From assembly GCF_054482525.1 (NCBI RefSeq), contig NZ_CM137006.1: DNA of 64,000 bases, one strand, 5' to 3'. Within the stretch, counting starts at the first letter, position 1. Each line of letters starts with the position of its first letter. The notes below the pieces were generated by a model, which searched no databases, was not told where the DNA came from, and saw only the letters and a list, made by a program, of their open reading frames with translations. This document shows positions 19,171 to 42,617 of this stretch, in pieces. The translations under genes were made by a program, and so were the position numbers.

Positions 19171-19539
19171 TCACAGCCGTGATCGGCTAAGAACAATATT
19201 ACTTACCTCCCTGTAAGAACACCGGCTCATCAGCCCGCACGCTTTCCTGGCTTGAAGAATGTCTGTCGCAGTCAAATATGGTGCTTGTACCTGAGAGGTA
19301 AATCCATTGCGATCAATACGAACTAACTCATATTTCTCTACCAGAAAGTTAACGGCATTAGCCAGAGTGATACCGGCATCGATATGCTCCTTTATAACGG
19401 TTTCATCGCTAAAAGGTGTGTCGCTTAGCATTAGGCCATAGTGCTGCTCAAGCAGACGAGTAAGTAACATTTGCCAGATTGCAACGGGCGACAGACAGGG
19501 CTTCGCCGCCCGCGAAATTGTAGCAGGTAGATTTTTCAT
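19171..19539 (-). CDS. cbtA: CbtA/YeeV/YkfI-family toxin (type IV TA)
   Basis: Start trimmed to [36 protein letters not shown], closely resembling remembered CbtA/YeeV; ATGA overlap with upstream antitoxin. Confidence 0.8.
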
Positions 19540-19877
19540 GTTTGCTCTCGTGAAATTTGTTTGCGCTGAGGGGGATAAATGGCGATGTATACGTAGCCGC
19601 AACTACCAAGGGTATCGGCTTCGCAGGTGAAACCGTTGTGGTACAGGGTGACACAGTGGGCATGGCGGGGATTCATTTCACCAGTGGTCAGCATCGATTC
19701 CATCTGACTGATAAAATGTGGAAATACGACATCCAACTTCAGGCTTTCGGCATCACTAAACTTACCGGTGATACTTGCCCGGTCAGCCAGATAGTGCAGC
19801 CGGTTGCCCTCCTGCACCAGACGTGCTCCCAGGCACGGCGTGATATCCCGCTGCAGGCCCCATGTGGGGTTGCTCAT
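19536..19877 (-). CDS. cbeA: CbeA/YeeU/YfjZ-family antitoxin
   Basis: 113 aa; [20 protein letters not shown]...[14 protein letters not shown] matches the YeeU family. Confidence 0.8.
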
Positions 19878-19894
19878 TTATAACCTCTTTATTG

Positions 19895-20116
19895 TCAGTT
19901 CAGGGTAATACTCACCAGACAGGTATAAGGTCCGTTGCGATCCTGGCGGCGTTCGACGTATACCGCCAGCACACTGGAAATGTCAGGAACCACCTTAACG
20001 GTGTATTGACAGACACTGCCATGCCACTGGTATCTGCCAGTGCAGAATCGAACAATGCGGGAGGCCGGATGCTGACGGTAAATCGTCATCGCCAGGCGTT
20101 TACTGATAATTTTCAT
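19895..20116 (-). CDS. DUF987 protein (YeeT/YkfH-like)
   Basis: MKIISKRLAMTIYRQHP...YQWHGSVCQYT resembles YeeT; conserved position upstream of cbeA. Confidence 0.65.
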   Translation of the reverse strand: MKIISKRLAMTIYRQHPASRIVRFCTGRYQWHGSVCQYTVKVVPDISSVLAVYVERRQDRNGPYTCLVSITLN

Positions 20117-20124
20117 GTAATACC

Positions 20125-20604
20125 TCAAAGCAGACCATGTTCAGCGAACGACAATATCTGCGTACCACCGACGATAAGGTGGTCGAGCACCCGGATCTCC
20201 ACCAGCATCAGTGCATGTAACAGTCGTTGAGTGATAGCCTTGTCGGCCTGGCTTGGAGTCACTTCTCCGGACGGGTGGTTATGGGCAAATATCACCGCCG
20301 CCGCATTAAAGTACAGCGCGCGTTTCACCACCTCGCGAGGATGAACCTCAGTGTGACTGATGGTGCCGGTAAAGAGCGTTTCGTGGGCAAGCAGCTGGTT
20401 CTGGTTATTGAGGTACAACACGACAAACACTTCGCGCTCAAGGGGGCCCATTTTCAGCCTGAGCCAGTCGCGGGCAGCCTGAGTCGAGGTGAATGCCACA
20501 CCCGGTTCTAGCAAGTGCTGGTCAAGCAGAACCAAGGCTCGCTTAATGGTACGCAGTGCTGGTAACGGCAGTTCAGGTGTAAACATAGTCAGTTGTTTCG
20601 CCAT
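20125..20604 (-). CDS. RadC-like JAB-domain protein (YeeS/YkfG-like)
   Basis: JAMM-like motif HNHPSGEVTPSQADKAIT; 159 aa. Confidence 0.75.
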   Translation of the reverse strand: MAKQLTMFTPELPLPALRTIKRALVLLDQHLLEPGVAFTSTQAARDWLRLKMGPLEREVFVVLYLNNQNQLLAHETLFTGTISHTEVHPREVVKRALYFNAAAVIFAHNHPSGEVTPSQADKAITQRLLHALMLVEIRVLDHLIVGGTQILSFAEHGLL

Positions 20605-22579: not shown

Positions 22580-24313
22580 ATGTACATAGCAAAAATTAAA
22601 TTTACAAATTTCAAATCATTCAAAGAGATGTCTTTTGAGTGCAATGATAAATTCAACATAATTGTTGGTGAAAATAATATTGGTAAAAGCACATTATTTG
22701 AGGGGGTAAGTTTATGGAAATATGCTTATGACAACCTTATTCAAGAAAAAAACAAAAACAAATTCTACAAAGCTTCAACTAACTACTACATTACCTATTC
22801 TACACTCGATCAAATAAGACTTGTTGACGATATTGATATTTTTAACGACCCAAAGAATAGCTCCGCATCAATATGCATTACAATTAAAGATGAACAAAAT
22901 GAATTTGATTTAGAGATTAGATTTGAAAAGCCAGGGATTAAAAATTCATACTTACGGATATTTAATAGCAATGGTTCTGATAATGACACACAGTTTTCAA
23001 ACTTTGAACGATTCTCAAACTATATAAAAGAAAAGGATTGCACTCTAAAAGATGCCATTTACATTTACCAAACAAGACCAATATCAACTATTTTTAGAGA
23101 TGAGCCATTTTACAATAATGCGCAGATAGAGAAAAAAATAAATATTGGAAAGTCACATGATGTCTTAAGGAATAAAATATTAAAAACCGAAAATACTCAA
23201 GCCACAAGGGTTGCACAAAAATTTGAAAATCTTGAGATTCGCCTACAAAAAGTCCTTGGTGAAAACTATATCTTAAAATTTAAGAATAGAAATCGAATCG
23301 ATGATGAGTATGTTAAAATAACTGCAACAAAGGAAAACGGGAAAGAATTGGAAATATCACTTATGGGTAGTGGTTTTTTGCAAGTCTTAGAGATATTTTC
23401 AACAATTGAGTATATGGAAAAGAATTCAACCGGTATTAACCTCATTCTTATCGATGAGCCTGATTCACATATCCACTCAAATTTACAAGCAAATTTAATT
23501 GACGAACTAAAGCAACAAACAGCATGTCAAATTTTTGTCATAACACATAATGACAGACTAACATCAAAAGCTAATGAAGGTGAGCTTTTTTATCTAAATC
23601 AGATAGTTAAGGATCTTGGTTTATTGTCTCACCTTGAAATATCTGATTATTCAAAAGTTAAAGATGGTCTAGCTAATGTACTAACAGCTATAAATGATGG
23701 AGATGAAACACCCATTGTTATAACTGAAGGAAAAACGGACCAGAAAATTTTAACAACTGCTTGGGAAAAGCTAAACCCAGGAACTCCTATGCCTTTTAAA
23801 ATAATTTCATCCGGCATTCAAATTGAAGAGGAAAAAAGAACTGGGTGCGCAGAGGCAGTTAGAAGATCTTTAGAATACATTTCAACATTAACTGATAGAA
23901 CAATTATCGGTTTATTTGATAATGATCGGGAGGGAAATGAGCAGTTCAAAGGATTAAATCGTTCTATTTTTGAACCTCATGACCTGCAAAATAACTCCCG
24001 AAAACATCAGATAAAAAATATCTATGGGCTTATTCTTCCCGTTCCTGTGCATAGAGAACGTTTTGTACAAAACAATTCTTTAACGCAGCGTTACTTCGTA
24101 ATTGAACAATATTTCCAAGATGAAATATTACTACAGCATAACATGAAAGGTGAGTCAATATTAGGTACTGAGGTATTTTTTGTTAATGACTCAAGAAAGA
24201 ATGAGTTTTCAGAGTCAACCAATGACCTTCCGGTAGAATGCTTTGGGGATTTTAGTATTTTATTCGATAAAATTTCCGATTTATTGGCTAACAATAGACC
24301 AGAAAACACTTGA
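22580..24313 (+). CDS. OLD-family ATP-dependent endonuclease (ABC-type ATPase + C-terminal TOPRIM)
   Basis: Walker A GENNIGKST, Walker B/H-loop LILIDEPDSHIH, TOPRIM glutamate IVITEGKTD and DxD motif FDNDREG; 577 aa; strongly AT-rich codon usage. Confidence 0.7.
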   Translation: MYIAKIKFTNFKSFKEMSFECNDKFNIIVGENNIGKSTLFEGVSLWKYAYDNLIQEKNKNKFYKASTNYYITYSTLDQIRLVDDIDIFNDPKNSSASICITIKDEQNEFDLEIRFEKPGIKNSYLRIFNSNGSDNDTQFSNFERFSNYIKEKDCTLKDAIYIYQTRPISTIFRDEPFYNNAQIEKKINIGKSHDVLRNKILKTENTQATRVAQKFENLEIRLQKVLGENYILKFKNRNRIDDEYVKITATKENGKELEISLMGSGFLQVLEIFSTIEYMEKNSTGINLILIDEPDSHIHSNLQANLIDELKQQTACQIFVITHNDRLTSKANEGELFYLNQIVKDLGLLSHLEISDYSKVKDGLANVLTAINDGDETPIVITEGKTDQKILTTAWEKLNPGTPMPFKIISSGIQIEEEKRTGCAEAVRRSLEYISTLTDRTIIGLFDNDREGNEQFKGLNRSIFEPHDLQNNSRKHQIKNIYGLILPVPVHRERFVQNNSLTQRYFVIEQYFQDEILLQHNMKGESILGTEVFFVNDSRKNEFSESTNDLPVECFGDFSILFDKISDLLANNRPENT

Positions 24314-34753: not shown

Positions 34754-36853
34754 ATGAACCGAGAGCAAGCCCAACAACTGCTGCAGACTGCTTTGGCTAA
34801 CCCTGCTGCTGAATTTCGTGATGGTCAGTGGGAAGCCATTGATGCATTGGTTAATCGTCGTCAGAAACTACTGGTTGTACAGCGTACCGGCTGGGGTAAG
34901 AGCTCGGTTTATTTTATTAGTACTAAAATCTTCCGTGACCGCGAGATGGGGCCTACGATTATTGTATCGCCACTGCTTGCATTAATGCGTAACCAGATTG
35001 ATTCAGCGCAGCGTTTGGGAATAGTTGCCGAAACAATGAATTCGGCTAATAGGGAGGATTGGCAGGCTGTAACTCAACGAATTCTCAATAACCAAATAGA
35101 CTGTTTGCTCATTTCCCCAGAGCGGCTAGCAAATGATACCTTTATTGAGACGGTCCTTCAGCCCATTGCCGATCGAATCGCCCTAATGGTAATTGACGAA
35201 GCACACTGTATTTCAGATTGGGGTCATGATTTTCGTCCTGATTATCGCCGTATCGTAAATATCCTTCGTCAATTGCCCGCCAACACCCCAGTACTAGGTA
35301 CGACTGCAACTGCCAATAACCGAGTTGTTGACGATATCCAAGCCCAGCTTGGGGATATACAAATCCACCGAGGTCCTCTTACTCGCGAAAGCCTCGCTCT
35401 GCATACAATGTCTTTACCCGATCAGGCATCTCGTTTAGCTTGGCTCGCCCAAGTTATTCCGATGCTACATGGAACAGGCATTATTTACGCATTAACAGTT
35501 CGTGATGCCGAGCAGGTGGCAGAATGGTTGAGCATGCACGGTATAGTTGCCATGGCATACCACGGTAGCATCGAGGCTGAAGGTTTTGAGAACAGCAATG
35601 CTTACCGTCAGTACTTAGAAGAATTGTTACTTAACAACCAGCTTAAGGTTTTAGTAGCAACGACCGCGTTGGGTATGGGTTATGATAAACCTGATTTAAG
35701 TTTTGTAATCCATTACCAAGCTCCGAGTTCAATTGTTGCATACTACCAGCAGGTGGGTCGGGCTGGGCGCGGTATTGCTCATGCAACAGGTGTACTGATG
35801 TCGGGGATAGAAGATAACGACATCCATGATTTTTTCCGTGATTCTGCATTTCCATCGGAGGATCAAGTTAACGATATTCTTCGAGTGTTGGAAAATAATG
35901 ATGGTCTATCACTCCGCAACATCGAGGAAAAAACTAACCTACGCCACGGCCAGATTGAGAAAGTACTTAAGTTACTGAGTGTAGAAAATCCAGCCCCCAT
36001 CATTAAAAATGAAAATCGTTGGGTTAGGACCACAGTTCGCTATCAAATGGATCATGCCCGAATTGCTCATTTGACAGGACAACGTATTCAGGAATGGGAA
36101 GAGGTTCAAGCGTACCTTACCGACACTGGATGCAAAATGGCATTTCTACGTCGTTCTCTGGACGATCTCGACCCAACTCCATGTGGTAAATGCTCGTCCT
36201 GTATTGGTCAACCAATTATAAATCAAATCATTGACCCTGCTTTGGTACATCGTGCAGGGACTTTCCTAAAACATGCAGAAATGCCGATTACTCCAAAAGC
36301 TCAGGTAGCAGCTAATGCTTTTTTGCAATATGGCTTCAGCGGCAATTTGCCACAGCAGATTAGAGCACAAGAAGGTCGAGTGTTGTCTCGCTGGGGAGAT
36401 GCTGGTTGGGGACGGTTAGTAGCCGATAATAAACGTGCAGATCACTTTGATGATGAGCTAGTGGTTGCTATGGCCGAGATGATTCAGCAGCGTTGGCAAC
36501 CGAATCCAGCGCCACAATGGGTATGCTGTGTACCTTCACGCAATCATGTACAATTAGTCCCTGATTTCGCTCGCCGCTTGGCGGCATGTTTGAGGTTGCC
36601 TTTTTTCAATGCCATCAGCAAGGTTAGAGATAACCAACCTCAAAAGGGGCAACAAAACCGTTTCCATCAATGCCGCAATCTGGACGGTGCTTTTGAGATA
36701 AATCAACCTCTACCTAACACACCGGTTCTACTTGTAGATGACATTGTAGATTCAGGCTGGACGTTAACTGTCATCGCAGCACTCCTACAACGCGCAGGTA
36801 GTGGTAAAGTATACCCTGTTGCACTTGCTTCATCTTCGGTAAAAGACTCATGA
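34754..36853 (+). CDS. RecQ-family helicase fused to a C-terminal phosphoribosyltransferase-like domain (PsyrT-like)
   Basis: Helicase motifs GWGKS (I), DEAH (II), TATA (III), QQVGRAGR (VI); C-terminal type-I PRTase motif VLLVDDIVDSGWTLT. Confidence 0.8.
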   Translation: MNREQAQQLLQTALANPAAEFRDGQWEAIDALVNRRQKLLVVQRTGWGKSSVYFISTKIFRDREMGPTIIVSPLLALMRNQIDSAQRLGIVAETMNSANREDWQAVTQRILNNQIDCLLISPERLANDTFIETVLQPIADRIALMVIDEAHCISDWGHDFRPDYRRIVNILRQLPANTPVLGTTATANNRVVDDIQAQLGDIQIHRGPLTRESLALHTMSLPDQASRLAWLAQVIPMLHGTGIIYALTVRDAEQVAEWLSMHGIVAMAYHGSIEAEGFENSNAYRQYLEELLLNNQLKVLVATTALGMGYDKPDLSFVIHYQAPSSIVAYYQQVGRAGRGIAHATGVLMSGIEDNDIHDFFRDSAFPSEDQVNDILRVLENNDGLSLRNIEEKTNLRHGQIEKVLKLLSVENPAPIIKNENRWVRTTVRYQMDHARIAHLTGQRIQEWEEVQAYLTDTGCKMAFLRRSLDDLDPTPCGKCSSCIGQPIINQIIDPALVHRAGTFLKHAEMPITPKAQVAANAFLQYGFSGNLPQQIRAQEGRVLSRWGDAGWGRLVADNKRADHFDDELVVAMAEMIQQRWQPNPAPQWVCCVPSRNHVQLVPDFARRLAACLRLPFFNAISKVRDNQPQKGQQNRFHQCRNLDGAFEINQPLPNTPVLLVDDIVDSGWTLTVIAALLQRAGSGKVYPVALASSSVKDS

Positions 36854-38175
36854 ATGTATCTAACTTATTGTCAAAAACAGCCCAGGCGACCTTACTTCTG
36901 ACTAGTTATTTTTCTAAAGCAACTAGCGAAAACGCCAAACCACTTTCCAACGCCGAATGGGGACGTTTTGCGCTATGGTTGAAAGAAAAAGCAGTTACGC
37001 CAGCTGACTTGTTGGACTCTGATCCTCAAACCTTACTGAATGGCTGGTACGACTCCCGTATCAGTACGGATCGGATCATTGAGTTGATGAATCGAGGACA
37101 TAGCCTCGCTTTGGCTATGGAGAAATGGCAACGGGCAGGCTTGTGGGTAGTGACACGTTCTGATCCAGAATATCCATGGAGATTAAAACATCGGCTTAAA
37201 ACAGACTCTCCCCCTGTTTTATTTGGCTGTGGCAATAAAGCCTTATTAAATAGAGGGGGATTGGCTGTCATTGGTTCTCGAAATGCCAATGCATCAGACC
37301 TTACTTTTACTGATCACATCGGCGTTAAAGCTGCGGACGAAAATATAGCTGTTGTATCTGGTGCTGCACGTGGAGTAGACGAAACAGCCATGTTAGGTGC
37401 AATGAGGCAAGGTGGAGTTGTAATCGGGATTTTGGCAGATAGCCTGTTAAAAGCTGCGACTAGTGCCAAATGGCGCAAGGGGCTTATGAATGACCATGTT
37501 GTGCTAATATCCCCTTTTTACCCTGAGGCTGGTTTCTATGCGGGAAATGCCATGGCTCGCAATAAATATATCTATTGCTTGTCGGATAGTGCATTGGTTA
37601 TTCATTCTGGTCGAAAAGGTGGAACAATTAGTGGGGCAGAGGAAAATCTTAAGAAAGGATGGGTGCCACTATGGGTCAATCCAACAACCGATCTAGATTC
37701 AGCTAATGCTGACTTAGTGAGCAAAGGGGGACATTGGTTGCCAAGTGATAGTAATGGCCTATCCATCGAGAATTTGCTTAAAAATAATGACAGATCAAAA
37801 ATGCAGTTAAAAGCAGAGCCCCAAGATCTTTTTTCAGAATTGTCGCATCCAGAATTAATTATTGGATCTGCAGAGAAATCGTCAACTCAAGCTCTCGAAA
37901 AAGATTGGACTGCTACTATTAATGAAGAAACTCCCAACCTAATAACTACGGAAAAAAAATTAGAGGAAAAAGAGTTAGATGTAAATCCTATAGACTTTTA
38001 TCTGCTATTCAGGACAGAATTACAGCGATTGGCCGAACATCCAATTACAGTAGATAGGTTGACAGAAGTCACTGGGTTGAATAAATCGCAAGTGCTTGAT
38101 TGGTTGAAACGTGCTGAACAAGATGGTTTGGTAAAAAAACTAAACCGTCCTACAAGATATCAATTAAATGAGTAG
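36850..38175 (+). CDS. DprA/Smf-like Rossmann-fold protein with C-terminal winged helix (PsyrA/ShosA-like)
   Basis: DprA core LAVIGSRNA...VVSGAARGVDETAMLGA...GGTI; ATGA start/stop overlap with the upstream helicase gene. Confidence 0.75.
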   Translation: MNVSNLLSKTAQATLLLTSYFSKATSENAKPLSNAEWGRFALWLKEKAVTPADLLDSDPQTLLNGWYDSRISTDRIIELMNRGHSLALAMEKWQRAGLWVVTRSDPEYPWRLKHRLKTDSPPVLFGCGNKALLNRGGLAVIGSRNANASDLTFTDHIGVKAADENIAVVSGAARGVDETAMLGAMRQGGVVIGILADSLLKAATSAKWRKGLMNDHVVLISPFYPEAGFYAGNAMARNKYIYCLSDSALVIHSGRKGGTISGAEENLKKGWVPLWVNPTTDLDSANADLVSKGGHWLPSDSNGLSIENLLKNNDRSKMQLKAEPQDLFSELSHPELIIGSAEKSSTQALEKDWTATINEETPNLITTEKKLEEKELDVNPIDFYLLFRTELQRLAEHPITVDRLTEVTGLNKSQVLDWLKRAEQDGLVKKLNRPTRYQLNE

Positions 38176-38356
38176 TAACAGGCTTTAATGAAGCAACTAT
38201 AACCGGTTTGGCCTTAATGATTTTTAGTTAAGCTTGGGCATATAAAAGTTTAGAATTGATATAATGGTATTCAATTACATTAGTGTTGAGCTAATGTAAT
38301 TGATCCTGATTTAAATATCATCTATCAGAATTGAACAATTTTACATAGTTTATACT

Positions 38357-39346
38357 TTATGTCTTTCTTTCAAGTGCAACTCCTAGATCCGCTGCCATTT
38401 TTTGGATTAGCCTCCAATCTAGCGGCCATTCTTTTTCTAAAGTAGATCTCCGTCTTTTGATTAACCAGTAAACGAAAATAACAACGCTTTGTTCAAAGAA
38501 ACTACTCCCTTCTTTGCCATCCTGAATTAGTAGTTCGAGCTCAGGAGTCTCTTCTATAAATTGATGTAATCTTTCTATCGTATCGGGTTTGATCACTTCT
38601 TTAAATGTATCTAGAATTAATAAAGTCGATTTTTGATTGTTTGGTTTATTCTTTGTTAAAGCTATGTAGATATTATCTAAAGTTCGCTGAATTCCTGCGT
38701 AACCATCAGATGCTGCGTTAATTGCTTTCGATACTGAACAGAAAAAATCATCCGTAGTTTCTATTAACGCCATGCTTTTTGCTACAGTTCTATGTATATC
38801 TGGTTCAACTATAGTTTTTGCTTTATATATGGCATCATGAGTTAACTCGGCATAGGCATGTTGTAATAAAGATCTAACCTGTATCTCACATGGAATGCCT
38901 TGTTCAATGATAACTCCATTATAATCAAAGGATTCTTTTGCAGTTACTATAAAATGTACGGATTGATACGTGAAAATTAATGGTGTATTTAATCTTTCTT
39001 CTTCGTAGTGTCTTGATGTCTTATAATGCCATTTATTACTACTTTTTATTATTTCACATATTTCATCTATATCTGAAGTAAGTAAAACGACAAACCTGAT
39101 GCCAACTTTATCTTCAATCTCTTGGTAGGGGTTTTTGTATGATTTTTCTTTTCGATGAAAAGCTTTATCGATTAGAGATGTCTTTTCTTTTATTCTCGGT
39201 GTCGCAGGTTGCTTGAGAAAGCTATTGAGGTCCCGCTCTTTATTTTCTGAGAGTTCTTTGCAAATATTTGAGACGACAAAATCTCCCCATGCTTTATACA
39301 TGGGTAGTTCTTTTTCCCAAAGTTGCGAAAACTCTAATTCATTCAT
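38357..39346 (-). CDS. RelA/SpoT-fold nucleotidyltransferase (toxSAS-like)
   Basis: Synthetase-domain signature PRIKEKTSLIDKAFHRKE, GIRFVV, YQSVHFIV and CEIQVRSLLQHAYAELTHDAIYK (EIQIRT..QHxWAE..H..YK); AT-rich. Confidence 0.7.
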   Translation of the reverse strand: MNELEFSQLWEKELPMYKAWGDFVVSNICKELSENKERDLNSFLKQPATPRIKEKTSLIDKAFHRKEKSYKNPYQEIEDKVGIRFVVLLTSDIDEICEIIKSSNKWHYKTSRHYEEERLNTPLIFTYQSVHFIVTAKESFDYNGVIIEQGIPCEIQVRSLLQHAYAELTHDAIYKAKTIVEPDIHRTVAKSMALIETTDDFFCSVSKAINAASDGYAGIQRTLDNIYIALTKNKPNNQKSTLLILDTFKEVIKPDTIERLHQFIEETPELELLIQDGKEGSSFFEQSVVIFVYWLIKRRRSTLEKEWPLDWRLIQKMAADLGVALERKT

Positions 39347-39354
39347 TAATTAGC

Positions 39355-40446
39355 TCATTCCTGAAGGGTTATCTTGTCCTTGATGAGGATTGTTGTCCAC
39401 TCAGCAGGTTTACCATCTTTATCGAGTTCACCTATAGTAGATTCAATTACAATATGGCTTTTAAAAACTTCCGCAGGGGCTGTGATTTTTATATTTTTAC
39501 TAAAGTTAAGCTTTCTTGTTTTTAATTTGCTTTCAATATGCTCGTTGTCTCTTGTGAAAGAGGTTTGTGGTATACCAGATTCATGAGCATACTCAAGATA
39601 AAGATCCTTAATACTATCATCAAAAAATCTTTCAGCATAATCTTTAGCTGAAATTACATCCGATTTTTCATGTTTAAGATATGTAACTAATGCATTTTTA
39701 AGCACATTTTTCTTTTCCTCGCTGACATCCAATTCATTAAGAAATTCACTCGTTTTTTCATAGAAATTCTTTGTTGTGCGGGCACTTGTTTCTGGGTAAC
39801 CGCAACCTAAAAAATTTTGATAAAAATATTGTGCTGCAGCTTTACCATCCGACTTACTGATTTGATAGTCAGAAATCATCACATCCCAAGATTTATTAAG
39901 ATCAGTATTATCAAGAGAATTGGTTGATTGGAAAAAACCGGCAGTTTTATAAAGTTTTGTGGATGGTGTAAGTAATATTTCTTCAACGAATTTTAATGAT
40001 ATTTGGCCCGTTTTATCGTCGATTACTTTTTCATATGCACTATAAATATCAGCCTTGATAATTCCAATGAATTTTCTTTTATTTACACCATAGTCGCCAG
40101 AAAAGATTACTACAATTCCGCCTGGAATTGCTCGTCTTGTCTGCGCATCTGCCAGTTTATTAGCTATTGTGTAAGTCTCATCAATATAATCCTCTCCCTC
40201 TTTATCAATTAAAGTTGTAGCAATATAAGGAACATAATCTTTTCCATGCTCCTTTATTTGCATTTTTACGGCTTTAGAACCATCACCTAAAGCGTCGATT
40301 ACTCGTGATTTAAAACCTTGCAAGGCATCAGCATCAAATTTTATAAATGAAGAACCTCTTGTTGGTTCTATTTTGTTTCCTTCTTCGTCGCGCTGATGAA
40401 TTTGGTGGATAATTATTTTGTTAATATTCATTTTGCTGATATTCAT
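39355..40446 (-). CDS. NA37-family nucleoid-associated protein homolog (YejK/NdpA-like)
   Basis: Similarity along the whole length to remembered YejK: N-terminus INKIIIHQIHQRDE vs INQIALHQLIKRDE, and central and C-terminal blocks; AT-rich. Confidence 0.65.
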   Translation of the reverse strand: MNISKMNINKIIIHQIHQRDEEGNKIEPTRGSSFIKFDADALQGFKSRVIDALGDGSKAVKMQIKEHGKDYVPYIATTLIDKEGEDYIDETYTIANKLADAQTRRAIPGGIVVIFSGDYGVNKRKFIGIIKADIYSAYEKVIDDKTGQISLKFVEEILLTPSTKLYKTAGFFQSTNSLDNTDLNKSWDVMISDYQISKSDGKAAAQYFYQNFLGCGYPETSARTTKNFYEKTSEFLNELDVSEEKKNVLKNALVTYLKHEKSDVISAKDYAERFFDDSIKDLYLEYAHESGIPQTSFTRDNEHIESKLKTRKLNFSKNIKITAPAEVFKSHIVIESTIGELDKDGKPAEWTTILIKDKITLQE

Positions 40447-40463
40447 TTCTGTGTAGTTCCATC

Positions 40464-40931
40464 TTATTGATTATCTGATTTTATATTTTTGCTTTCAATA
40501 TATTCTTTGTGAATATTATTCCATTCTTGACTGTCTTTTTCCCAAATAGATTTATATTCATCAAAAAGACTATCAATATCTGACTGGGTTACATCTTCTT
40601 TGGATTTTAAGTAATTAACTTTGTTTCTAAGTTGATACATGGCTAGCAAAGTAGCTTTTTGCCTAAACCATAATTTTTGATAATCAAATCTTGCAGTCCA
40701 CCCACTAACTAGAGTAAGACAGGCACTCACAATAAGAGCAGAATTTTTCTGTATTTTTTCATATCCAGATAAATCGAAGGCTAATATCAGTGTAGTAATA
40801 GTGCTCAAAAATATAGTCATGAAAAAAAATATTTTTAATTTTTTTTTATTCCATTTCGCCTTGCACTTTATTATGTTGATACTTTTATGGATTTCATCCA
40901 GTAAAAACTGTTGAGAAGATGTTATAGACAA
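40464..40931 (-). CDS. Small 2-TM membrane protein, SLATT-like
   Basis: Two hydrophobic helices (FFFMTIFLSTITTLILAF, ALIVSACLTLVSGW) followed by a charged helical tail; first gene of the three-gene operon. Confidence 0.5.
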   Translation of the reverse strand: MSITSSQQFLLDEIHKSINIIKCKAKWNKKKLKIFFFMTIFLSTITTLILAFDLSGYEKIQKNSALIVSACLTLVSGWTARFDYQKLWFRQKATLLAMYQLRNKVNYLKSKEDVTQSDIDSLFDEYKSIWEKDSQEWNNIHKEYIESKNIKSDNQ

Positions 40932-41175
40932 TTATCTCACCTGAAATATTTTCACATTGGTAATAAAACTACTCGCACTAACTGGTATGAGCTCATACCA
41001 GTTAGTGCGAGCATGGCTACCGCATTTGATGTGCTCAACAGCTTTGTATTGAGATACTTTTAACAATGTTGTATTTAACTAGCTGATACTATTAATTATA
41101 AATGAGAATCAGAGCAAAAACGAGCGGTAGGTAAGATATAGACCGAAAGCATATAAAACCATAAATATCAAATCA

Positions 41176-42378
41176 TTACACTACCGCATGTAAGATTCTA
41201 CGTACAGAGTGTAGATCAATCAAATAGTCTGAATACCACTGCATCATCTCTCTTCGCCCCTCCAGATATTGCGCATGGTTGTACGTCCCACGAATCGCAT
41301 TCTTATCGACATGCGCAAGCTGGGTTTCAATCCATGCCGTGTTGAACCCTTCCTCGTGCAAAATCGTACTCATCGTGTGACGGAAACTATGCCCCGTTAC
41401 CTTCCCCGTATACCCAATCCGTTTGAATACCTGATTAATACTCGCTTCACTCATCGTTTTACGTGGATCATTGCGCCCTGGGAACACCAAAGGATATTGC
41501 CCGGACATTACTTTGAGCTGTTGTACGATTTCTAGCGCTTGGGTAGAGAGGGGTACAAGATGGGGCCGTTTCATCTTCATACGCTCTGCAGGTATTTCCC
41601 ACACCGCTTTCTCAAGATCAAACTCACTCCAGAAAGCACCTCGAAGCTCGCCAGTACGAACTCCCGTAAGGATAAGCAGACGAGCGGCAAGAACAACTAA
41701 CGGGCTTCCTGTATAACCTGCGAGAGCTTTAAAGAAGTCTGGTAACTCCTCTACTGACAGGAAGGGATAATGCTTCGATTCATGCCCTGACATCGCGCTG
41801 GTTAGGTCCGCTGCAGGATTGTATTCCGCGCGACCTGTAACGATGGCATAACGAAAGACTTCGCTGCAGCGCTGGCGAACCTTCTTGGCCTTCTCTGTCG
41901 CGCCACGGCTTTCGATTCGACGCAGCACATTAAGCAGAACCAGCGGTTTGATTTCATTCACTGGCAGTTGGCCGATATAGGGGAAAATATCTTTATTGAA
42001 GGCTTCGATAATATCGGAGGCATAGCCTTCTGACCACCGGCTCACCTTAGTACCGTGCCACTCAAGCGCCACAGACTGGAACGTGTTGTTGAGCTGCACA
42101 TCGCGAACCAGCTTTTCTTCTTTCTTTGCGAAAGACGGGTCGATACCCTCGGCCAGCTTTTTCTTGGCTTCATCACGCAGAGCCCTCGCTTGTGCAAGGG
42201 AAACAGCCGGATAGACCCCAAAAGCCATACGCTTCTCTTTTCCATTGAAGCGATATTTCATTCGCCAGTATCGAGAACCAGAGGGAACGACTTCAAGATA
42301 CAAGCCAGCACCATCTGCCAGCTTATAGGCTTTCTCTTTGGGTTTAGCAGCGTCTACCTGTCGCGCATTAAGCTTCAT
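41176..42378 (-). CDS. P4-type tyrosine integrase
   Basis: Start trimmed to MKLNARQV; catalytic motifs GVRTGELRG, HSFRHT, LAHVD..RGTYNH; immediately adjacent to the tRNA-Thr 3' end. Confidence 0.85.
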   Translation of the reverse strand: MKLNARQVDAAKPKEKAYKLADGAGLYLEVVPSGSRYWRMKYRFNGKEKRMAFGVYPAVSLAQARALRDEAKKKLAEGIDPSFAKKEEKLVRDVQLNNTFQSVALEWHGTKVSRWSEGYASDIIEAFNKDIFPYIGQLPVNEIKPLVLLNVLRRIESRGATEKAKKVRQRCSEVFRYAIVTGRAEYNPAADLTSAMSGHESKHYPFLSVEELPDFFKALAGYTGSPLVVLAARLLILTGVRTGELRGAFWSEFDLEKAVWEIPAERMKMKRPHLVPLSTQALEIVQQLKVMSGQYPLVFPGRNDPRKTMSEASINQVFKRIGYTGKVTGHSFRHTMSTILHEEGFNTAWIETQLAHVDKNAIRGTYNHAQYLEGRREMMQWYSDYLIDLHSVRRILHAVV

Positions 42379-42534
42379 TGGGGGCATCTCCCTGGACCGA
42401 ACACAGAATGCCCCCACTTATGCCCCCAACTGCGACTTGATTTCGGTTGAGTCCAGTTGATAACAGGAGATAAGATACGGGCCAGAAACCGCAGTATACG
42501 GGCTTTTAGTTGATTTCGGTAGACTTGGGAAGAG

Positions 42535-42558
42535 TTTGAAATGGTGCCGATAATAGGA
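42535..42558. repeat. Proximal att-like repeat overlapping the tRNA-Thr 3' end
   Basis: tttgaaatggtgccgataatagga; partner at 18971..18992. Confidence 0.5.
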
Positions 42559-42617
42559 GTCGAACCTACGACCTTCGCATTACGAATGCGCTGCTCTACC
42601 AACTGAGCTATATCGGC
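42542..42617 (-). tRNA. thrW: tRNA-Thr (anticodon CGU)
   Basis: Reverse complement reads GCCGATATAGCTCAGTTGGTAGAGCAGCGCATTCGTAATGCG...TTCGACTCC...CACCA: cloverleaf arms, CGT anticodon in the loop, encoded CCA. Confidence 0.85.

Follow-up and report, generated by a model that had tools for sequence, protein, structure and literature searches.

We analysed a 64,000-nucleotide stretch of the chromosome of Escherichia coli SCU-102, hereafter called the window, and found that three consecutive genes on its minus strand quite probably constitute a type I PANGU abortive-infection system. As judged from the homology of its products, the system is present in a three-gene form, in which a gene for a SLATT-domain membrane protein precedes the genes for a nucleoid-associated protein (NAP) of the NA37/YejK family and for a small alarmone synthetase (SAS) of the GRel subfamily, and it appears to be cargo of a genomic island inserted at the tRNA gene thrW. 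The three open reading frames (ORFs), the positions of which are listed in Table 1, encode proteins of 155 amino acids (aa; TTG start), 363 aa and 329 aa, respectively, and are separated by gaps of 17 base pairs (bp; SLATT/NAP) and 8 bp (NAP/GRel). Such a trio of closely spaced minus-strand genes had been noted in a first-pass annotation of the sequence, the coordinates of which turned out to be exact. The same annotation had placed the genes on a low-GC island beside an integrase gene at thrW, and this is confirmed: the GC content is 0.30-0.35 over positions 38000-41000, versus 0.50-0.58 in the flanking proBA region, and a P4-type integrase gene and a tRNA-Thr(CGT) gene are found directly upstream of the cassette.

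Type I PANGU systems, as described by Li et al. (April 2026 preprint, bioRxiv 10.64898/2026.04.06.716658), consist of a YejK-like nucleoid-associated protein, Pag1A, and a toxic SAS (toxSAS) of the GRel type, Pag1B. Phage protection was shown for PANGU^Ff from Ferrimonas futtsuensis, PANGU^Pa from Pseudomonas aeruginosa and PANGU^Ec from E. coli. Pag1B alone was reported to be an inactive and non-toxic tetramer. Synthesis of pppGpp, as detected by liquid chromatography-mass spectrometry (LC-MS), was observed only when Pag1A was added, no labelling of tRNA was seen, and cryo-electron microscopy revealed a 2:1 heterotrimer of Pag1A and Pag1B. Escaper mutants of phage T4 map to the host-DNA endonuclease gene denA, and Pag1A leaves the nucleoid upon infection. 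Some operons in the authors' Cluster 1 include an extra SLATT gene, for which the preprint reports no experiments. This was the only publication found in our literature search that deals with GRel, SLATT and NA37 together. The first-pass annotation had presented the module as undescribed, a claim that has to be withdrawn since the preprint covers the NAP-GRel core and mentions the subset with SLATT. It had likewise not recognised the combination as a named defence system. In this respect it agrees with PADLOC-DB 2023, which gave no system-level match for the cassette, but direct comparison with the PANGU^Ff proteins does relate the cassette to a described system.

The evidence for this relationship comes from both core proteins. 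The second gene product matches the Pfam family NA37 (PF04245) over nearly its full length (residues 12-326, E-value (E) 2.4e-17), and BLASTP aligns it over its full length with Pag1A of F. futtsuensis (32% identity, E = 3e-69). Its score against NF001557, the equivalog model for the housekeeping protein YejK (NdpA), is only 20.7 bits, far below the cutoff of 341. By these scores, the protein is a distant paralog of YejK encoded on a low-GC island and not the housekeeping YejK itself. The third gene product matches the Pfam family RelA_SpoT (PF04607) at residues 51-177 (E = 1.3e-15), with the motif EIQVRSLLQHAYAELTHDAIYK at residues 154-175, and it aligns end-to-end with Pag1B^Ff in BLASTP (39% identity, E = 3e-83). 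The RxKxxxSxxxK, DKxGxR and EIQxR motifs are kept, the ATP-binding and catalytic motifs being invariant in the family. The catalytic tyrosine of the G-loop is Y127, which aligns with Y129 of the Ferrimonas protein and is invariant in 26 sequences. These matches, together with the NCBIfam SLATT_1 match of the first gene product described below, support the assignments to SLATT-like, NA37 and RelA/SpoT proteins that had been made from the sequence at first sight.

An AlphaFold2 (AF2) model of the GRel protein, with a predicted local distance difference test score (pLDDT) of 82.5, shows a synthetase domain at about residues 1-175, a helical linker at residues 182-211 that is modelled with low confidence, and a confidently modelled all-helical C-terminal domain at residues 219-320. 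This three-part architecture agrees with the description of Pag1B in the preprint, and by analogy the domain at residues 219-320 is the predicted partner-binding domain. When the model was searched with Foldseek, the best matches were SAS1 and SAS2 of Bacillus subtilis and RelP of Staphylococcus aureus (E of about 2e-9, template modelling (TM) score 0.78), and CapRel, a tRNA pyrophosphokinase, matched far less well (E = 8e-5). The modelled fold therefore resembles genuine (p)ppGpp synthetases more closely than it does this tRNA-modifying enzyme. A sequence search of the PDB detected no released Pag1A or Pag1B structure; the GRel protein matched only SAS enzymes and the NAP matched nothing. PADLOC gave only a weak partial match of the GRel protein to the candidate PDC-S33 (E = 2e-9), which is restricted to the synthetase region.

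To assess the coupling of the two core genes, species-representative genomes were scanned with an alignment of GRel homologs, which yielded 80 loci (numbered with the prefix L), and ORFs and hidden Markov model (HMM) matches were called for each of them. GRel homologs as such number more than 1300. In all 79 testable loci a NAP gene was located directly upstream of the GRel gene and on the same strand, the 80th locus being cut by the end of its contig. The two genes overlap by 4 bp in most of these 79, and no other ORF is conserved beside the pair. One of these loci, L040, is from F. futtsuensis DSM 18154. Its proteins contain every residue that is numbered in the preprint (Y129, R258, E272, R279, R306, H314 and E337 of Pag1B, and K6, E47 and K52 of Pag1A), which identifies this locus as the PANGU^Ff characterised by Li et al. 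The window locus shares with PANGU^Ff the two protein families with full-length homology, the gene order and tight coupling, the GRel architecture with its catalytic tyrosine, and a location in a defence island. Known defence genes are indeed linked to the cassette, namely a PsyrTA pair in the window and, beside other copies, either AbiTii or an HNH gene with a gene for a 1946-aa helicase.

Several observations weigh against assigning the locus to PANGU type I. Firstly, the source that defines this type is a preprint. Secondly, the pore-lining DNA-binding residues K200, R203 and K204 of the Ferrimonas Pag1A correspond to S199, K202 and A203 in the window NAP, so that one of the three DNA contacts is kept (R203, as K202); in the NAP family as a whole, basic residues prevail at the R203 position alone (59/81). 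Thirdly, one of six interface residues of Pag1B is kept (R306, as R298). Lastly, the acidic 'DNA-mimicking' (DMK) character that is stressed for the C-terminal domain of Pag1B is weak here, as this domain has a net charge of -1 in the window protein versus -10 in the Ferrimonas protein (family median -3, range -10 to +3), although net charge is a crude proxy for the protein surface. The locus also differs from PANGU^Ff in having a SLATT_1 gene in first position, and no PANGU system with SLATT has been reported to be experimentally dissected. The differences in interface and DNA-contact residues are no argument against membership, because Li et al. report that the co-evolution of Pag1A and Pag1B is lineage-specific. 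Nevertheless, going by the aligned residues, the recognition details of Pag1A and Pag1B cannot be carried over to the window pair.

The steps of the following mechanism were demonstrated in characterised homologs, and we infer them for the window locus. In an uninfected cell, dimers of the NA37-family protein would occupy long chromosomal DNA, and GRel would be present as an inactive tetramer. Degradation of the host chromosome by a phage would release the NAP, which would then bind GRel at its C-terminal helical domain, thereby breaking up the tetramer. The resulting 2:1 complex would transfer pyrophosphate from ATP to GTP, GDP or GMP, producing AMP and (pp)pGpp. The depletion of nucleotides and the build-up of (pp)pGpp would stop transcription and translation, so that no progeny phage emerges from the infected cell. 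The SLATT protein, more speculatively, might add membrane damage to this outcome, either via the freed NAP or via the product of GRel. The first-pass annotation had proposed an abortive-infection logic of DNA sensor, nucleotide enzyme and membrane effector. The first two parts of this proposal are borne out by experiments on homologs, and an effector role of SLATT would be our extrapolation.

The first gene product matches the NCBIfam model NF033634 (SLATT_1) with 86.9 bits at a cutoff of 41 and a PADLOC 2TM 'Effector' model with an E of 4e-6; the matches to SLATT_4, DUF4231 and SLATT_1 in Pfam are weak. Hydropathy and charge place transmembrane helices at about residues 34-50 and 64-80, and a cytoplasmic location is predicted for the N-terminal segment and for the segment following the second helix, both of which are basic. 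The AF2 model (pLDDT 74) consists of three long helices that form a two-transmembrane hairpin and a C-terminal helix. The 155 aa comprise a SLATT domain only, and a nucleotide-binding module was not recognised with NCBIfam, Pfam or AF2. An alignment of 17 SLATT sequences contains 15 invariant positions.

SLATT homologs were detected with the family HMM in 11 of the 80 loci. When GRel sequences were placed in a neighbour-joining tree, the window locus grouped with the ten loci that have SLATT upstream in a single clade, in which SLATT is present in 11/11 members despite a divergence of about 50%. Outside this clade, GRel of Methylomonas fluvii is followed by a SLATT_1 gene (L070:7046-7495, plus strand), the product of which is 23% identical to the window SLATT, and in Pseudomonas caspiana the NAP gene overlaps at its start with a SLATT_4 gene (L055:4473-4949, plus strand; 99 bits, cutoff 55), whereas the sister locus L053 is without a SLATT gene. 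These cases imply that SLATT-type proteins have joined NAP-GRel pairs at least three times. In an Alcaligenaceae locus, the stop codon of GRel lies in a 4-bp overlap with a 153-aa ORF (L071:2128-2589, plus strand) that has two predicted transmembrane helices and no family match; this ORF possibly encodes another kind of membrane partner. The constancy of SLATT in the clade, its independent recruitment and its 4-bp overlap with the NAP start suggest that it is a working part of the system.

Close homologs of the window SLATT occur in Klebsiella (97% identity), Yersinia (91%), Enterobacter, Citrobacter, Pectobacterium and Cronobacter. In the contigs sampled for these homologs, the order SLATT, NA37, RelA_SpoT is found in 11/11, and a P4-type integrase gene lies upstream in 9. 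The SLATT stop codon and the NAP start codon overlap by 4 bp in some cassettes. As the neighbouring genes vary (PsyrTA in one set, the HNH and 1946-aa helicase genes in the other) and the cassette remains constant, the three genes move as a unit among Enterobacteriaceae. A census of complete E. coli genomes detected the cassette in 1/5426 at high identity and in 3/5426 at lower stringency, and SLATT is present in each of these three GRel-bearing genomes. The two further E. coli strains have a diverged cassette that opens with a SLATT_1 gene (annotated as DUF4231) overlapping the NAP gene. One of them, E. coli BEC1-S17-ESBL-07 (L093, NZ_AP022295.1 3620694-3623244), shows about 70% nucleotide identity in parts, and its cassette is located beside a relaxase/mobilisation gene pair near paoD instead of thrW, which implies that more than one kind of mobile element carries the cassette in E. 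coli. The co-occurrence of the three genes in other genomes, which the first-pass annotation had left to be established, is thereby documented for 10 species-level genomes, 11/11 contigs and 2 more E. coli, and the arrangement is not a product of chance. A few NAP-GRel pairs were found on plasmids, and a full-length GRel was not detected in phage genomes.

Most likely, although this is speculative and argued by analogy, the SLATT protein would act as a second, membrane-disrupting output of the common trigger, or as an amplifier of it, because the SLATT protein of DRT10 is a required effector and because the NAP of PANGU type II activates a membrane protein. The features computed for SLATT and its partners do not point to a particular role. 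Foldseek searches of the PDB with the SLATT model returned generic coiled coils only, with E-values above 0.2; the different SLATT recruits share no common charge signature; and neither NAP nor GRel shows indels specific to the SLATT clade. Residues diagnostic for this clade are absent from NAP and limited to one in GRel (I290). We also considered that SLATT may offset a non-acidic GRel C-terminus. This idea was rejected, as the median C-terminal charges of GRel are -3.5 with SLATT and -3 without it (Mann-Whitney p-value of 0.46). The idea that the acidic C-terminal tail of SLATT, which has a net charge of -5 in the window protein, serves as a NAP-binding DNA mimic is similarly unsupported, as the net charge of this tail varies between +1 and -6 among the independently recruited SLATT proteins.

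If SLATT is indeed an output of the system, the question is how it would be switched on. A possible but rather doubtful answer is that the freed NAP does so directly, in which case the cassette would represent a hybrid of PANGU types I and II with one sensor and two parallel outputs. Activation of a membrane protein by a YejK-like NAP has a precedent in PANGU type II, and SLATT is located directly before the NAP gene in two of the at least three recruitments, sometimes with the 4-bp overlap. However, Pag2B of type II binds its NAP via a large acidic DNA-mimic domain, which SLATT lacks and for which its variably charged tail offers no consistent substitute. Moreover, the NAP has no features that are specific to the SLATT clade, and the SLATT gene of L070 is not adjacent to the NAP gene.

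Gating of SLATT by a nucleotide that GRel makes is somewhat less likely and on balance improbable. Here, a membrane pore would open in response to the alarmone as immune second messenger, in the manner of the CBASS, Pycsar and Thoeris systems with two-transmembrane effectors, and the NAP would be the sensor, GRel the signal generator and SLATT the effector. SLATT domains owe their definition, and the family its name, to an association with enzymes that generate nucleotides (Burroughs 2015, as quoted elsewhere). Three independent recruitments involving two SLATT subfamilies, without adaptive indels in NAP or GRel, would be more readily explained by a diffusible ligand than by a bespoke protein interface, and the two-transmembrane gene comes after GRel in L070 and L071. 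In a mirror-tree comparison the distances of the three proteins are correlated with each other (r = 0.93-0.97), and the partial correlations are higher for SLATT and GRel (0.55-0.60) than for SLATT and NAP (0.12-0.20), but it should be noted that these values stem from 14 non-independent taxa and are weak evidence. Against nucleotide gating speak the lack of a recognisable nucleotide-binding module in the 155-aa protein, the ability of two-gene PANGU systems to work without SLATT, and the fact that the host enzymes RelA and SpoT make (p)ppGpp during starvation, so that a pore gated by ppGpp would risk killing its own host. That the GRel alarmone is the ligand of a SLATT pore, and a (p)ppGpp-family nucleotide thus a dedicated immune second messenger linking a chromosome-integrity sensor to a membrane effector, seems unlikely to us. 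If it were true, the repeated recruitment of SLATT_1 and SLATT_4 proteins would reflect a general ability of SLATT proteins to read nucleotide signals.

It is equally unlikely that SLATT is merely a modulator, for instance a membrane anchor or buffer that restrains GRel or NAP or a factor that sets the threshold of activation, or a passenger kept by linkage. PANGU^Ec was built from 'NA37 and gRel' gBlocks and protects against phage Bas34 (bioRxiv 10.64898/2026.04.06.716658). As every E. coli GRel cassette that we found carries SLATT, this gene was probably left out of the working construct without loss of defence. However, a mere passenger is not expected to persist in all clade members at such divergence, to retain 15 invariant residues or to be recruited repeatedly, and SLATT proteins are required effectors in DRT10.

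Lastly, it is very improbable that the pair is a classical toxSAS toxin-antitoxin system with the NAP as antitoxin, or that GRel pyrophosphorylates tRNA like CapRel and FaRel2: although all toxSAS studied before PANGU are toxins of toxin-antitoxin systems, several of which modify tRNA, and although the GRel fold also matches CapRel, its structural neighbours SAS1, SAS2 and RelP are closer, and the homolog Pag1B is inactive and non-toxic on its own, is activated by Pag1A, makes pppGpp and labels no tRNA. The designation of GRel as a 'toxic small alarmone synthetase' in the first-pass annotation was right with respect to the RelA/SpoT synthetase fold, but the homologous enzyme is not toxic by itself and requires the NAP as an activator. 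With the toxSAS CapRel, FaRel, FaRel2 and PhRel, GRel has in common a RelA/SpoT synthetase-fold effector that serves in anti-phage abortive infection. Those enzymes differ in being held in check by an antitoxin, encoded in trans or fused, and several of them pyrophosphorylate tRNA, whereas the GRel homologs need an activator and make (pp)pGpp. A cognate antitoxin gene is not apparent, the NA37 gene being the sole conserved neighbour of GRel in 79/79 loci.

The reading of the locus as a three-gene PANGU type I system can be compared with other known systems as well. PANGU type II (Pag2A and Pag2B), which we compared by its description only, likewise pairs a YejK-like NAP with a membrane protein, and both types share a trigger, as indicated by the denA escape mutants of T4. 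In Pag2B, however, a large N-terminal acidic DNA-mimic domain is followed by a C-terminal transmembrane part, whereas the membrane protein of the window is a bare 155-aa SLATT hairpin that accompanies a GRel enzyme. In DRT10 (UG17 RT-SLATT), AbiA-SLATT and CBASS or other SMODS-SLATT systems, a standalone or fused SLATT domain is the presumed membrane effector of an enzyme that makes nucleotides or nucleic acids. In the window, the partner enzyme is a pyrophosphokinase and not a reverse transcriptase or cyclase, and the SLATT protein belongs to SLATT_1 instead of SLATT_5 as in DRT10. PADLOC, NCBIfam and Pfam searches of the three cassette proteins detected no CD-NTase or SMODS-type cyclase domain, which a CBASS system would encode. 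An NA37/YejK domain is also present in DefensePredictor D390 (WP_000355468.1; Science 2026, PMC13092281), a validated anti-phage system of E. coli. D390 is listed as a single protein of 391 aa, in which a zinc ribbon at the N-terminus precedes NA37, and it involves neither GRel nor SLATT. In Table S10 of the same paper, a ranked list of novel defence genes predicted for E. coli, a 364-aa 'nucleoid-associated protein' (WP_097733593.1) stands next to a 329-aa product (WP_000016656.1); by their sizes, these two could be a NAP-GRel pair.

The logic of the NAP-GRel core was already described in the preprint, and the window locus brings no new principle. What is new is that SLATT is fixed in a whole clade, that it has been recruited repeatedly and that the triple is mobile, which shows it to be a stable component of these systems and not an occasional neighbour. 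The locus provides a natural E. coli case of this rare three-gene form, beside PsyrTA on a thrW island. It also offers a genetic handle on the question of how a standalone SLATT protein is triggered, for example by comparing a dead GRel with a NAP that is unable to bind DNA, and this question is shared with DRT10 and AbiA. Finally, the locus exposes an annotation gap, since PADLOC-DB 2023 misses the system and RefSeq labels its products 'GTP pyrophosphokinase' and 'nucleoid-associated protein'.

Table 1. Features of the three-gene cassette and its immediate surroundings in the window.
Feature	Position	Strand	Basis
SLATT_1-family protein with two transmembrane helices, first gene of the operon	40464..40931	-	NCBIfam, PADLOC, hydropathy, AF2
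NA37/YejK-family nucleoid-associated protein (NAP), Pag1A homolog	39355..40446	-	Pfam, BLASTP
GRel-subfamily small alarmone synthetase, Pag1B homolog	38357..39346	-	Pfam, BLASTP, AF2, Foldseek
P4-type tyrosine integrase of the carrier island (context only)	41176..42417	-	NCBIfam PRK09692 integrase domain, E 1.7e-89
tRNA-Thr(CGT), thrW, island integration site beside proA (context only)	42542..42617	-	ARAGORN; Rfam tRNA, 71.8 bits; annotation
Shine-Dalgarno sequence AGGTGA, 5 nucleotides before the SLATT TTG start	40937..40942	-	sequence read; invariant in related cassettes (four-leader alignment)
Perfect 20-bp inverted repeat with 4-nucleotide loop, between the integrase and SLATT genes	40970..41013	-	terminator-like scan

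Upstream of the SLATT gene, in the spacer that separates it from the integrase gene, is a perfect inverted repeat, which lies 27 nucleotides ahead of the SLATT Shine-Dalgarno sequence (Table 1). Both arms of this hairpin vary together in a compensatory manner in the Klebsiella cassette (L090) and in a cassette with 73% identity (L082), which implies that the pairing is preserved. The 136-nucleotide leader with the hairpin (40925-41060, minus strand) has a predicted RNA folding energy of -52.6 kcal/mol (z = -8.0), and it corresponds to no Rfam family. The hairpin could be a terminator of the integrase gene, an attenuator of the operon or an operator, and we regard it as a part of the system only tentatively.

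The PsyrTA pair (RqlHI-type) at positions 34754-38175 on the plus strand directly adjoins the cassette, is convergent with it and is complete. PsyrT is a RecQ-family helicase with a C-terminal phosphoribosyltransferase-like region (PADLOC E of 0), and PsyrA is a DprA-like protein (PADLOC E of 7e-170), the gene of which overlaps that of PsyrT. The same arrangement of PsyrTA and cassette recurs at the proBA/thrW site of Klebsiella (L088-L092). According to the annotation, the island extends from thrW to about position 18.8 kb of the window. A search of the window for another tRNA-Thr 3' end, which would mark the far boundary, gave no match, and the attR site is therefore degenerate or absent.

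Further into the island, between degraded insertion sequence elements, positions 22580-24313 (plus strand) encode a stand-alone 577-aa 'ATP-dependent nuclease' of the OLD/ABC-ATPase type. It has generic PADLOC matches only (NsnB, 2e-22; GajA, 3e-20; AriAB, 4e-20), and no partner gene of the NsnB, GajA or AriAB systems is located beside it. It is possibly an orphan or an uncharacterised defence gene. At the far end of the island (about 19171-20586, minus strand), the annotation of the corresponding region of NZ_CP051753.1 (891706-893121) lists RadC, DUF987, a type IV toxin-antitoxin pair (YeeU/CbtA) and then the remnant of an integrase gene, which is the usual backbone of CP4-like islands.

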